From positions 1-33,939 of the forward strand of contig JABANN010000379.1 of the NCBI GenBank assembly GCA_013115125.1: a stretch of 33,939 nucleotides of DNA, in the 5' to 3' direction. This document shows, piece by piece, positions 6,165 to 26,760 of the stretch (position 1 is the first letter of the stretch; each line of letters starts with the position of its first letter). The position numbers and the translations under genes were made by a program. The notes beneath the pieces were generated by a model, which was not told the DNA's origin, ran no database searches, and saw nothing but the letters and a program-made list of their open reading frames with translations. This stretch comes from Perkinsus olseni. Its lineage: Eukaryota.

Positions 6165-9100
6165 CTACGATTTGTTCGTGGTCGAGCCAGCAGTAGTGGT
6201 CGTAGTATCCTCATCTGCTTCTACTTCAACCTCCTCCACTAACACTGCTTTGCCCGTGGCCCTGATCAAGAGAATTACCAAAAATCTCTTCAATCATCAT
6301 CGTTCTTACTTCTCTCCAGCCTGAATATTTTCATCGCCCGTACGAGCCTTCTTGGCAGGGGGTGCTCCTTCCGTCTCTTCCTGTTCCACCTGCTCGTCAT
6401 TCTCCTCAACATCTGCCTGCGTTGAATTCGGCAAGTGCTCCACAGAAGGGTCCTGCTCGCGTTCCTCGAATAAACGCTTCCGCCGGGATCGAACCTGGGT
6501 CGTTCCATCATCAAACAGCAACACTAACGCTCTGCCCACCTCGGTGTCCAAGGCTTGGAAGAGCGAGGTTCTGAACATCCCTTTAGTGGTTTCATAGAAA
6601 GTCGGCATGGCCAAGCCTGAGCGCAAACACGATCGATTCACTACTCTCGCATCCCCCTTCTTTCACCTTCATGGGCCTTTTCATATTCGTAAGCTTGCAA
6701 AACCATTTCAAACTTATCAATATCTTTGGCATAAATGGCCTGACAAAAATAAAAAACTCCCTCCGAGTTTCGAACCCACGGCCCTCCGCTGAATAATCAA
6801 CCCCCCTAACCGCGCCACTATTCGAACAGTGAACCTCCTCCTACCTCCTGCGTCACGCCAGCTTCAAACTCGTTCCATAAATCTTCAATCTCCTGTGCAG
6901 TACCGCGACTCCCAGGATCCTCGCGCAAGGAAGACAACATCCGCTTCAAACCCTGACCACACGCATGTATACCAAAACCGACTCAACGATCGATCGGTGG
7001 ACGACTCGAGCCATTCACACCGCCATTCCATAGCAATAAAAACACTCGACAACTCAGCACCCGATTTTTCCCAAAATGGAGTTTCAACCGCGATATGAAA
7101 AACACTAGCGAAAAACACATTTCACTTTGACACTTTCATTCACATTTGCCCGGTGACAAACGCGTAAAACACGTAGGGCGTTTTTTCGCGAAATGCTCTT
7201 CACGGCCATGTGTATTTCGCGAAGCGATTTGACTTCATTTCACATTTTCGCGATTTTCGCGTTTTTCAGTTTGTGAAAAACGCCACTTCACGTATTACGG
7301 GTGAAACTCCAATTTTTGTCCATCGCCCTTCCACCGGCTAAGTCAGACTTCCAACCGCTATGCTCGCTTCCCTCAAGATGCTATCCAGAAAAAAGATGCT
7401 GAGCCGCATGCGCCAGGCACACTATGCCTTCACTCTGCACGTACGCGCGCAGTGCGTGCCGCGCACGGTAGGGTAGCCTGTGCAATAATTGATTGGTTGT
7501 CACGGCCACAACGTGACGTCCTGACCACTAGACGATAGCGACGCGCAAGACCGTTCTGATGATACATGGAATACGATACCGCTCAGAGAAAAGATTTCTT
7601 CCGATCACCAAAAACCTCGCAATTGCCTTTTCAACCAAGATCGATCACCACGTGTAAGCTTGTAGTCCAACGACGGTGATACCAGCTCAGTTCCAATCAC
7701 ACCGTGCCGTAACTTCCTTGCACTTCCCATTTCTCCTGGACTTCATGCACGATTATCACATGGTTCATCAAAAGGCTTCCCTACGGGACCCAGCTCAGAA
7801 AATTTTCTTCCGGTCACGAGCAACTTTCCATTGGCCGACCAACTTCAGACTTCATTCATCGATCTCCCCCCGCCCCCCCCAGATCTCCCTCCAGTTCACC
7901 TCCCGTTCAAGCTGATGCTTCTCCTCTTTACTAACACCACAAAACGGTGTGATGTCCCCGGCAACGGCCTCGGCCAGATCATGAACCTGTCCACAAGGCA
8001 CACTAGTATAGAGACGGTCTTCCAACGAGGTTGAACCAGGCCCCAAACAGAATAAAAGATACTACGCTGTTTTTCTACACCATTTCCAGACCTACTTAGT
8101 GAAACCCCAAACCAAATTAGTAAAACCCCCGAGCAATTTAGTCGGCACGCGAGAACGGCTTTCGGATCGTCCGGTACGATTCGCCCCTCCTCCCGGCCCG
8201 GGGGCCCCGGCCATGAGTTGCGGGAGAAGCGGTAGAACGAAGGCTAAACGAAGGCAAAGTACCTCCTGCCGTGCTGTGAGAAGTTGCTTCAAAAAGGGGT
8301 TGAAGCGGTTACTATGCAACTTTGTATACGATGCTTCAATAACGCCCAAACACTGCACGGTCGTTGCTCAGCAGTCTTCGAATGGGCATCCAGACGCCGC
8401 AAGAATTCCTCGAAACCGAATTATACCAAAATTTCATCACAAATGTCGCAATATATACCCACGCAGTCACCAAGGACAAGACAATGATTCAGCCGTATAC
8501 CGTTCAAAGAGGGTCAGATGCCTTCAACAGCATTGAAAGACTTTGCCGCAGAACCGAAAAATTCCGAAACTTTCGGAAATTCCGGCTGAGTTACTCCGGC
8601 ATGAAAATTTTCACTTGAGAACGCCGACTTCTGAATTCAATGCTACCGCCAGTTACACCTCTTTCCTTCGCCCGTGGCTTCCGACTTTCTCAATCCATTT
8701 CAACGGCAAATTTCACAATTTTGCCTTTTTACTTTTTCCAGTCTTCTCTGTCCCTTCCCAAATGCAACAGATTTTTTTCTTACCCTTAACCCGAAAATCT
8801 TCATTTTCGATCTTTTCCCATGCTCCCTACAGGTCTTACCTCGCGAGAGACTGTATAACGACAATAGAGGAAACGGAGCCTTTTTCCAGTCGAAAATTCG
8901 CAATAGATTTTCCCAAAATTTTCCAATTTTACCACTGCTTCCCGATAGATTCCTCACCACCCGATACTACCAAAGCCATCCTTATCGTCCTTTGCCGGTC
9001 GAAGTCTTTCTTACCCGCAGGAGTGAGCATGGCCATGACCGCGCACCGGTGCATGTGATCGCAATCGGACTCGGGATCGGGGACGCCGCTACGGACCCAA

Positions 9101-9500
9101 CCAGTTCGTCTGAAACAGAAAATTTTCTACTGGGAAAATGAAGAACAACGAAAAAAAGAGACATAAAGGATGAAAGAATACATTACTGAAATAGGAAACA
9201 TTTCCTGCTGGCAAACGTATGAGCGTACGAAAGAATTTCTAAACACGGTATTGAATAAAACGCTGGAACCCTGCAACCCGGATTGGGAAGGCCAGATCCT
9301 GAGCGACCTCTCCTTATGCCTCAAACCACGAGGCCCAAGCACGCACCGCCTGAATCTCATCAACCCGCTTACCGCAAGGTCTTCAATTGCCCTAGAAAGT
9401 GCATGAAGTCCACGATGCCCTCAGCGTTGATCGCGCTTTCGGAGGCTGCAGATGAAGAGGAAGAAGTTGGACGAGAGAAGCGGGAAGTGATGGCCCCCAT
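6165..9500 (-). CDS. HDDC2: HD-domain 5'-deoxynucleotidase (HDDC2/YGK1/YfbR-like), 297 aa, 8 exons
   Basis: Exons 9373-9500, 8971-9109, 7900-7986, 6845-6952, 6667-6739, 6540-6616, 6310-6494, 6165-6261, all GT-AG and in frame (894 nt). Motifs [70 protein letters not shown]. Confidence 0.95.
6752..6825 (-). repeat. tRNA-derived (SINE-like) element in HDDC2 intron 4
   Basis: A-box-like TGGCGCGGTTAGG, B-box GGTTCGAAAC, then a T-run. No intact cloverleaf. 20/22 nt match to 23413-23434. Confidence 0.45.
7403..7584. repeat. 182-bp direct repeat, copy in HDDC2 intron 3 (other copy 14244-14425)
   Basis: 181/182 identical at an offset of 6841 bp; contains a truncated tRNA-His. Confidence 0.97.
7495..7542 (-). 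pseudogene. Truncated tRNA-His(GTG), 5' 48 nt only
   Basis: Matches 33489-33536 (one mismatch at position 32). Lacks the T-arm/B-box and the 3' acceptor strand. Confidence 0.92.
8076..8142. mobile_element. Left end of the same putative DNA transposon family, in HDDC2 intron 2
   Basis: TA|CACCATTTCCAGACCTACTTAGT followed by ~21-bp subterminal repeats; reverse complement of 1-73. No partner end seen downstream. Confidence 0.6.
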
Positions 9501-25059: not shown

Positions 25060-25670
25060 CTGGGGGCGCCTGATGGTAGATGTCAGTAATAATAATAATT
25101 GCGAAGCGAGCGGAGCTGTATTATGTCAAATCGGATCATCTCGTGTGTGCCGTGCGTACGTTAAATACTCGTTTTAAATACTAAAGACTCGTGTTACCGT
25201 TTTTGCGTGCGAGAAATTATTTCAGTTAAAGCTAAAACGCACACCTAACGTATCCATGTCTCACGACCCTGGGAAAACTATCAAAATTACTCGATGAGGT
25301 TTCCCTCGCGAGTCAAGCGCGAAAACAATTTTTTAACGAAAAATGCCGGGCCTGGGATTCGAACCGGGGAGCCTCTTGTGCAGCGAGTATTACATTATCT
25401 AGAGTACTCCGCCACTTCGTTACGAAGGCCTACTAATAATAATCGGGCGTCGAAATCGTTTTTAACTATTATTTTTTCCCTGTCATTCTTCATGGAAGCG
25501 ATTGGCATGTGAAAAATACAATTCCTTAAATCCACTGAATCACATTGGAAATTGGTGAATGAAACCGTTTTCTATCCGCAGGGTTGTTCATATCCTCCCT
25601 AGCGTTTTTTCCGGAGTGGGGTTTGCGTGGTGGTCTCGAGGTTGTTGTTGATGTAACGGTTTTGTTCAGG

Positions 25671-26760
25671 GCGAGATGGCAACGGTGGGGTCAAGAAAGA
25701 TCCGAAAACGGTCTCACTGCCAGAGGACGAGGTTACCAGGCTGCTTTCCATCATACAGGTATGGATGGGCGAGTTGAGTATAAATTTTGGAGGATAACAC
25801 TGGTAGATATAAGGAAGAGTTGTATACGTTAGGCATTAGTTGTATGCAACTATTGGCTCCATTATGATCAGCCAAATTGTGGAGCCAGCGGAGCATATAC
25901 ATGGTGACCAATACCTTGGTCACTTGCTCTCTCACTCGGTCCCCCTTGTTCTCTTGCTCGACCCCCCCAAGCATGCTCGATATGGAATTACCATGGATTA
26001 CGCTCTTGTGTGAGCTGTTACAACAATGTTGTAACAACATCCTCATCCATTGTTGAGCCGTACTGTCACTTCCGAGCTAACTTGTGCGGTCGAGGGAAAC
26101 TATGCCGATTGATCTCGGGGGACGGGCGAGAGAGTGGCTTCTTCTCAGCGGTTGAGCACCAGTTTAACGTCGACTCGCTCGGAGTTGGGGGAGCTGAAAA
26201 GACGAGGGTTTGCAATGACGCCCGGGCAAGGGAATGGGCGATCAGCTAGTGGTAGTAGTGAACGCCTTCATGCGTGTGGAGATGATGCTGGGCAGGGTCG
26301 TCTGGTGGGGTGGGTCGAGGGAAAGACGGCGGTTTTACGGTAAGCGGAAGAGCATCGTCTGGGGAGGTGAAGTCTCGGTTGCTCGCGTGCAAGTTGTAGA
26401 GGGCAAGATTGAGGAAAATTTTCGTTGGTTTTTGCACGCAGATGGCGAATTTTTGAAGCGCATTTGTCCCACGGTCGGTGGTCGGGAGCGTGACGCCCTT
26501 CGCTGCGGTTGGGTTGTGGTAGCCAGTTTACTGAGATTACAGAGGCCTTCGGATTTTGCCTTCTCTCGTGCTTAGCCGGGCTCGTCGAACTCGACTCGTC
26601 AGAGCGGCTCGGGAAGGAAGGATCGATCGGCGGATCCCTACGCGGAGTAGAACTGGCTCGGGGTGCTCTGCCGTCACGGTTGTTGCCGTTTTGTGTGTTA
26701 GACGGAGGAGTTTGGATGGACGATGGCGCGATGTGGCGAGGGCAGGCCACGACGAAGGTG
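25671..26760 (+). other. Exon-like segments of a hypothetical low-complexity protein
   Basis: For example RDGNGGVKKDPKTVSLPEDEVTRLLSIIQ|GTATGG and DGEFLKRICPTVGGRERDALRC; not assembled into a gene. Confidence 0.3.

Follow-up and report, generated by a model that had tools for sequence, protein, structure and literature searches.

Single-base-centred palindromes in a Perkinsus olseni contig as probable excision scars of a transposon with 8-bp target-site duplications

The palindromes with one central base that are scattered along a 33,939-nt stretch of the Perkinsus olseni genome (contig JABANN010000379.1; "the window" below means this whole stretch) are, with a probability that we put at about 0.8, the donor-site scars of a cut-and-paste DNA transposon that duplicated 8 bp of its target and was excised in the style of the hAT elements. 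That the element belongs to the hAT superfamily is likely but unproven. An earlier reading of the window, referred to here as the initial annotation, had ascribed the palindromes to a hairpin-forming excision process, with template switching as the alternative. The excision reading is now supported by an 8-bp repeat that frames the palindromes, by central bases that are the complements of the ends of this repeat, by a 7-nt spacing between the centres of neighbouring palindromes and by a geometry that is odd throughout. The mechanism as such is already known and indeed textbook material, and the value of the present case lies in its scale and in its diagnostic pattern; the density of the scars and the dominance of one 22-nt product in a natural perkinsid genome are unusual, as seen in a single 34-kb window.

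The initial annotation had called attention to nine perfect palindromes with arms of at least 8 bp around a 1-nt centre and to five chains of overlapping palindromes. All nine were found again where they had been placed and with the arm lengths given for them, all five chains are real, and two further palindromes of the same class, at 4194-4214 (arms of 10) and 17640-17656 (arms of 8), bring the total to 11. The claim that a spacer of one base is specifically favoured was examined in this window by counting each palindrome once, at its innermost spacer, against a background of sixty Markov-2 simulations, and it held: palindromes with arms of at least 8 numbered 0 at spacer 0, 11 at spacer 1, 0 at spacers 2 and 3, and 0-2 at each spacer from 4 to 10, against simulated counts of ~0.4-0.65 at every spacer (~0.6 at spacer 1), so that spacer 1 alone is enriched. 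At this spacer the observed and simulated counts were 23 and 2.0 for arms of at least 7, 35 and 8.7 for at least 6, 72 and 35.6 for at least 5, and 213 and 139 for at least 4. In 200 simulations that preserved the local composition of 2-kb blocks, the maximum was 3 for arms of at least 8 and 8 for arms of at least 7. When the features listed in Table 1 are masked (583 nt, 1.7% of the window), 41 odd palindromes with arms of at least 5 remain where 35.6 are expected, and those with arms of at least 7 disappear altogether; a small excess at arms of exactly 4 persists. Eighteen of the 23 odd palindromes with arms of at least 7 belong to the signature pairs described below, and one more (centred at 6015) lies in a degenerate copy of the 22-nt pattern. 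Decayed palindromes, with at least 10 of 12 arm positions paired, showed no spacer-1-specific excess in the window beyond the perfect ones.

The spacing of the palindromes relative to one another points to a unit of fixed length. Among the 72 odd palindromes with arms of at least 5 there are 8 cases of overlapping neighbours whose centres are separated by exactly 7 nt, and the histogram of centre distances peaks at this value (8 against 0.05 simulated for arms of at least 5, 12 against 0.66 for arms of at least 4), with 0-2 pairs at each of the other distances for arms of at least 5; the 2-kb-block simulations yielded 0.03 such pairs on average and never more than 1. Two odd palindromes that lie 7 nt apart impose the sequence t1..t7, c8, c7..c2, c1, t2..t8 (c standing for the complement), and the resulting 22-nt pattern, which carries 14 constraints, is equal to the first seven bases of a target-site duplication (TSD), the reverse complement (rc) of the complete 8-bp TSD, and bases 2-8 of the TSD. 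The same odd pattern was sought for other TSD lengths T, as TSD(1..T-1)+rc(TSD)+TSD(2..T), in two scans, one covering T=4-11 and the other T=5-10, and it scores at T=8 alone, with 5 perfect matches, 4 with one mismatch and 3 with two, where simulations gave 0, 0 and 0.03. At T=4-7 and 9-11 no perfect match above chance was found in the window, and the even pattern TSD+rc+TSD had no perfect match at any T from 4 to 11. A score of 11 of the 14 constraints is at the level of chance (1.27 expected).

A signature search was carried out for an identical 6-mer to the left of a first palindrome centre and to the right of a second, with both arms of at least 4 and centres at most 100 nt apart. It returned 11 matches against 0.05 in 100 simulations, seven of them in the 7-nt form and four at longer range, namely 10536/10582, 12861/12887, 18374/18395 and 30213/30263, with centre distances of 46, 26, 21 and 50 nt. 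The identity of the central bases was not demanded by the search, and in all four long-range pairs the first centre is complementary to the base just after the right 6-mer and the second centre to the base just before the left 6-mer. In each of these scars (10517-10589, 12854-12908, 18367-18402 and 30206-30270) the palindromic (P) arms read as the TSD and the flank adjoining it in reverse complement, and the two largest palindromes of the window, with arms of 19 and 21, are both decoded by the signature rule. In the scar at 10517-10589 the left copy of t1-t7 occupies 10529-10535 and the centre at 10536 is the complement of t8; after a left P arm of 19 nt and 20 nt of filler there is a 6-nt right P arm, a centre at 10582 that is the complement of t1, and the right copy of t2-t8 at 10583-10589. 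At 12854-12908 the left copy occupies 12854-12860 and is followed by the centre at 12861, again the complement of t8, and by a few left P nucleotides; the right P arm of 21 nt is the reverse complement of t2-t8 and the right flank, the centre at 12887 is the complement of t1, and the right copy lies at 12888-12894. The two ends of this scar overlap by 3 nt (12866-12868), which fits a microhomology join. The scar at 18367-18402 is nested, with an outer pair of centres (18374 and 18395, 21 nt apart, putative TSD TGTCCAGC) that keeps both complement rules and an inner 22-nt pattern at 18372-18393 with 13 of the 14 constraints. In the scar at 30206-30270 a 7-nt P arm is present on each side, with 35 nt of filler between.

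The excision of a hAT-like element would have produced such sequences in the following way. Insertion of the element would have duplicated 8 bp (t1-t8), as is suggested by the direct repeats that frame the palindromes. On its departure, each flank would have been sealed as a covalent hairpin with an offset of one base, whose tip would be complementary to the TSD base adjoining the element, and the centres do obey this rule on both sides in 9 of the 11 signature pairs. A host nuclease would then have opened each hairpin on the 3' side, at 4 to ~21 nt from the tip, and unfolding would have turned the flank into its own reverse complement; the arms observed are exact reverse complements of TSD plus flank. 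Rejoining would have proceeded mostly through annealing of the two unfolded TSD copies and fill-in to the 22-nt product, the 7-nt form arising naturally because the unfolded duplications are complementary over t2-t7, or alternatively through short microhomologies or filler, with long palindromes as the outcome. Scars with one or two mismatches exist, and one scar is present in both copies of a repeat, designated D1 (at 7445 and 14286), which means that the process went on for some time.

The closest known counterparts of these scars are the footprints of the Ac/Ds elements. According to the sections of PMC5873905 that deal with them, Ac/Ds footprints contain P nucleotides in palindromes whose centre is complementary to the base adjoining the transposon, with arms of up to 20 nt in yeast, and 47% of the yeast footprints have arms of at least 3 nt (PMC5873905, there citing Lazarow 2012 and Coen 1986). 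Excerpts of other reports describe the TSDs of hAT elements as mainly 8 bp long (PMC5499845), their hairpins as offset by one base (PMC8151067) and the footprints in Arabidopsis and yeast as fitting hairpin opening with microhomology joining (PMC1978519). The scars in the window share with Ac/Ds footprints of yeast, Arabidopsis, Candida and maize, to the extent that these are covered in the relevant parts of PMC5873905 and PMC1978519, the retained copies of an 8-bp TSD, P nucleotides on a complement centre, arms reaching ~20 nt and microhomology joins. They differ in that they lie in a natural genome, with neither element nor experiment, in their density (~16-18 scars in 34 kb), and in the dominance of the 22-nt TSD(1-7)+rc(TSD)+TSD(2-8) product, short P insertions not being enriched; the longest P insertion in Candida was 3 nt, unlike the long arms found here.

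V(D)J coding joints and Transib elements resemble the window in that a hairpin on the flank is opened off-centre and the flank is copied in reverse complement. The hairpins made by RAG and Transib have no offset and would lead to palindromes of even length, and the TSD of Transib is 5 bp; the even model at T=5 gave 0 perfect matches in the window and 1 with one mismatch. Excision of Transib is described as blunt in the part of PMC8151067 that treats it.

Several observations weigh against hAT-style excision as the source of the palindromes. Two of the 11 signature pairs (13013/13020 and 18379/18386) break one of the centre rules. Classical short footprints, with centre distances of 1-6, are not enriched in the window, the form with a distance of 1 being present once against ~0.5 expected. 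The target consensus of hAT elements is nTnnnnAn, and the corresponding pattern here is weak: of 15 putative TSDs, a small sample in which degenerate scars are included, 6 have T at position 2 and 8 have A at position 7. The filler sequences have no local template except for an 8-mer at 10515. For four of the palindromes with arms of at least 8, centred at 4204, 8570, 14237 and 17648, searches up to 90 and up to 3000 nt away revealed no recognisable second copy of the TSD; these may represent one-sided scars. A strict search of the window for an element with an exact 8-bp TSD and 14-nt terminal inverted repeats (TIRs) with at least 11 matches found none, and Pfam detected no transposase domain in the 262 open reading frames (ORFs) of at least 60 amino acids in the window. 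Neither an empty-site nor an occupied-site allele was seen, the duplication being deduced from the framing repeats and not observed around an element, and we found no literature report of hAT elements, palindromes or footprints of this kind in Perkinsus.

The alternative that survives best, to which we assign a small but appreciable chance, is that the same hairpin chemistry was carried out by an element from another superfamily with 8-bp duplications, or from an undescribed one; no hAT gene was seen in the window, and Merlin and the MULEs are candidates. ORFs related to Merlin are reported from P. marinus, and Merlin TSDs are given as 8 and 9 bp in the pertinent portion of PMC8101967, of which the length of 8 fits the window and that of 9 gives 0 matches in the T-scan; no statement on Merlin's excision mechanism turned up in the literature. 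MULEs form hairpins on the flanking DNA and have TSDs of 8-10 bp (8-9 bp for Muta1), as set out in the corresponding sections of PMC5499845. The same sections describe the hairpin of Muta1 as having 43+43 = 86 nt and no offset, which predicts even palindromes, yet the window has neither a perfect even pattern at T=4-11 nor a spacer-0 palindrome with arms of at least 8; in addition, Muta1 excision is >90% precise there, and the one-base offset is what the section of PMC8151067 cited above reports for hAT. A further transposon known from P. marinus is Dada, with a TSD of 6-7 bp and insertion into tRNA or snRNA genes (PMC3706591). For this element the odd model gave 0 perfect matches at T=6 and T=7, and no scar lies in any of the 4 tRNA genes of the window. 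Neither Dada nor Merlin fits as well as hAT.

An origin of the palindromes that dispenses with transposons, in which template switching or snap-back synthesis accompanies replication or the repair of breaks, is very improbable in our judgment. Template switching can create perfect inverted repeats de novo, and short mutations of this type leave perfect inverted repeats beside their source sequence; both the filler sequences and the complex chains (8562-8584, 18367-18402) do resemble the results of multi-step repair. However, such mutations neither come in units of a fixed length nor prefer a particular spacer, they lack direct repeats with complemented ends, and the process offers no reason for a fixed 8-bp unit, for an exclusive 1-nt centre or for complemented outer bases of a flanking repeat. 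In the window T=8 alone scores, the four long-range pairs all keep both complement rules, and spacers of 0 and 2-10 are at chance, so that the alternative named in the initial annotation is not supported.

Still less probable is the idea that the palindromes are functional hairpins under selection, whether as RNA structures or as protein-binding sites. Two of them lie in transcribed stretches and three in introns, and their stems are perfect. They have no sequence in common, however; the 8-bp repeats that flank them would have no role in a hairpin, the 7-nt spacing would be left unexplained, and degenerate copies with 1-2 mismatches, compensated or not, exist. No Rfam family was matched by any of them, and the four tRNAs elsewhere in the window were recognised.

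Independent assemblies bear on the reality of these sequences. The window was compared with Logan contigs (not raw reads) of DNA and RNA-like runs, the feature at 4194 and positions beyond 26999 being left out of the comparison; the features at 13184, 14229 and 14569 fall outside all of the contig pieces listed, and such gaps prove nothing. The stretch 10000-16000 is present in runs of several studies. A contig of DNA run X1 that matches 8322-13074 with 0 differences spans 8562, 10517, 12866 and 13006, contigs of X1 and X3 over 16269-19328 span 17640 and 18378, the feature at 20881 is spanned by X1 (19871-21146) and X3 (19646-21146), and 26016-26036 lies within X1 and X3 contigs that start at 25996/25997. 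RNA-like contigs of X8, at 18103-18900 and 20183-20903, include 18378 and 20881. In the two DNA studies, the features at 8562, 10517, 12866, 13006, 17640, 18378, 20881 and 26016 are thus seen with no differences, save that X3 has all eight but 10517, where its contigs break inside 10517-10555; no variants at scars appear among the contig rows listed. The notion that the palindromes are artefacts of assembly or sequencing, in favour of which one could point to this break and to the possibility that the best-covering DNA run is the source of the window itself, retains next to no credibility, because independent contigs, from the two DNA studies and from RNA-like runs of two further studies, carry the scars with 0 differences, and an artefact would not yield 8-bp duplications with complemented ends.

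As a rule, excision footprints come to light through experiments or through the comparison of genomes, and here they are recognisable in one sequence, with no element nearby, by a pattern of 14 constraints. If the scars of the window are representative of the genome, they would signify a very active hAT-type element in a perkinsid, a lineage for which we found no report of one in the literature; they would provide a direct read-out of the way in which DNA hairpins are opened and rejoined in this lineage, and they would explain a class of perfect hairpins in introns and untranslated regions (UTRs), as well as some of the contig breaks, in Perkinsus assemblies. A bolder proposition, which we offer tentatively and with the odds somewhat against it, is that a hyperactive cut-and-paste system of the hAT-like kind resides in P. 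olseni, or did so until recently, and has left more scars than there are resident elements. If that were true, the ~one scar per 2 kb in the window would translate into tens of thousands genome-wide, and short insertions, like new perfect hairpins in introns and UTRs, would arise to a major extent from excision scars. That the TSD-inverted TSD-TSD form predominates would then point to hairpins being opened at least 7 nt from the tip and to the TSD copies being annealed subsequently, a style of repair unlike that behind the short footprints of plants and Candida, and the history of excision could be read from a single genome with no need for genome comparison.

Table 1. Scars, candidate scars and single odd palindromes in the window (scores are the number of the 14 constraints of the 22-nt pattern that are kept)
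Feature	Positions	Remarks
Single odd palindrome, arms 10, centre 4204	4194..4214	Possible one-sided scar; second copy of TSD not found up to 90 or 3000 nt away
Degenerate 22-nt scar, 12 of 14	6001..6022	Holds arm-7 palindrome centred at 6015
22-nt scar, 13 of 14	7445..7466	Within repeat D1 copy 1 (7403-7584)
Copy of the 7445-7466 scar	14286..14307	Within repeat D1 copy 2 (14244-14425)
Two adjoining weaker candidates	8166..8211	8166-8187 (12 of 14); 8190-8211 (11 of 14)
Complex scar, arm-8 palindrome (centre 8570) chained to arm-5 palindrome (centre 8579)	8562..8584	Intron of HD-domain gene
Long scar, putative TSD CACAGAAT	10517..10589	Intron of Nop25 gene
Long scar, putative TSD CTGCGAAG	12854..12908	X1 and X3 contigs, 0 differences
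22-nt scar, 13 of 14, centres 13013 and 13020	13006..13031	Third centre 13026
Perfect 22-nt scar, 14 of 14	13179..13200	Centres 13186 and 13193
Perfect 22-nt scar, 14 of 14	13203..13224	Centres 13210 and 13217; 2 nt from scar 13179-13200
Single odd palindrome, arms 8	14229..14245	Abuts left edge of D1 copy 2 (14244-14425); second copy of TSD not found up to 90 or 3000 nt away
Perfect 22-nt scar 14571-14592, 14 of 14	14569..14592	Centres 14578 and 14585; first palindrome has arms of 9
Single odd palindrome, arms 8	17640..17656	Intron joint 17586->18103; DNA contigs with 0 differences; no second TSD copy
Nested scars	18367..18402	Transcribed stretch; X1, X3 and X8 contigs, 0 differences
Perfect 22-nt scar 20875-20896, 14 of 14	20875..20897	Centres 20882 and 20889; transcribed; X1, X3 and X8, 0 differences
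Perfect 22-nt scar 26019-26040, 14 of 14	26016..26040	Centres 26026 and 26033; first palindrome has arms of 10; X1 and X3
Long scar, putative TSD CAGAATTT	30206..30270	Centres 30213 and 30263, 50 nt apart; both complement rules kept
Degenerate candidate, A+T-rich, 12 of 14	31841..31862	From the T-scan

The entries of Table 1 are not all of equal clarity. The chain at 8190-8211 is G+C-rich and has centres (8197 and 8204) at the 7-nt distance; its score is at the level of chance, and it is uncertain. The centres of the complex scar at 8562-8584 lie 9 nt apart, and the simple model explains it incompletely. Five scars are packed into 12854-13224, two of them separated by 2 nt, a crowding that would fit either local hopping of the element or a favoured open region. 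The scar at 7445-7466 is older than the duplication of D1, since the same scar is present in the second copy.

Two further sets of short palindromes were noted. Odd palindromes with arms of 4-5 and centres 5 nt apart are present at 21649/21654, 21792/21797 and 30571/30576; at arms of at least 4 the window has 5 pairs of this kind where 0.6 would be expected, and two lie inside 8-bp scars. An element with 6-bp duplications could have left them, or they could be 8-bp scars that were trimmed; the full T=6 pattern that would go with the former has 0 perfect matches in the window. The arm-6 palindromes centred at 14739 and 33247 (in 14725-14755 and 33235-33265) are reverse-complementary to each other, flanks included, and belong to a single repeat that is present in two inverted copies; they did not arise independently.

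The window is rich in introns, with a G+C content of 43-54% per kb and a GC skew whose sign differs from block to block. Its introns, as established by joints in RNA-like contigs, are of the GT..AG type and 44 to 984 nt long. The Pfam cut-off was passed by three of the 262 ORFs of at least 60 amino acids, HD_3 being matched twice and Nop25 once, and one further match fell below it. The exon-sized ORF at 8932-9126 on the minus strand has an HD domain, and its best match is "HD domain-containing protein 2 [Perkinsus olseni]", at 91% identity, followed by proteins of P. marinus and P. chesapeaki; a metagenome scan with this exon returned 2 loci at 36% identity, which are not from Perkinsus and were not used. 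Joints in RNA-like runs define an intron of the HD-domain gene (7984->8969) and one of the Nop25 gene (10271->10739). The scars, which make up ~1.7% of the window, sit in introns, in transcribed stretches that look non-coding and in intergenic DNA. The initial annotation had held that none of the palindromes falls in a confidently modelled exon: this stands for those at 8562, 10517 and 17640, which RNA joints place in introns, and for those at 18378 and 20881 it goes no further than that the transcribed stretches around them look non-coding.

Some features of the transcribed regions may be added. Two very short introns, 17342-17391 and 17452-17497 (48 and 44 nt skipped, CT..AC on the plus strand), share a minus-strand gene with introns of 296-516 nt. 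The RNA-like contig at 20183-20903 is of high coverage, with a summed depth in the thousands in X7, and its plus-strand ORF at 19926-20630 (234 amino acids) has no Pfam match.

Repeats other than the scars are also present. The two copies of D1, at 7403-7584 and 14244-14425, are 182 nt long and 99% identical. Across 7000-8333 the summed contig depth is 20-50x the single-copy level, and loose contig ends in this region are tRNA-like, which suggests a tRNA-derived repeat family. Within it, 175 nt (7109-7283) are replaced by a 29-nt stretch in a contig of single-copy depth in all four of the compared runs, a difference between strains or haplotypes; this segment lies inside a TIR-like pair, 7073-7095 / 7293-7315, in the high-depth repeat region. 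As elements, the TIR-like pairs at 7073-7315 and 13568-13889 were rejected, both being without an 8-bp TSD, and a relaxed search for elements gave 1 weak A+T-rich match among 4344 8-mer pairs that was judged to be due to chance. A joint in DNA runs, 7233->8076, was likewise rejected as a polymorphic insertion; it rests on 25 nt on one side and would delete the HD-domain exon.

Rfam recognised 4 tRNA genes and no other family in the window. The gene for tRNA-Arg(CCG) at 15133-15204 adjoins a tandem duplication of ~636 nt (15239-15754 / 15806-16390), the blocks of which are 75-89% identical with several indels, including one of 59 nt. The remaining three, tRNA-Arg(TCT), tRNA-Trp(CCA) on the minus strand and tRNA-His(GTG), are clustered in 32636-33560, where a degenerate tRNA-like copy at 33096-33141 has 65% identity to the reference tRNA-Arg(CCG) segment at 15152-15197.

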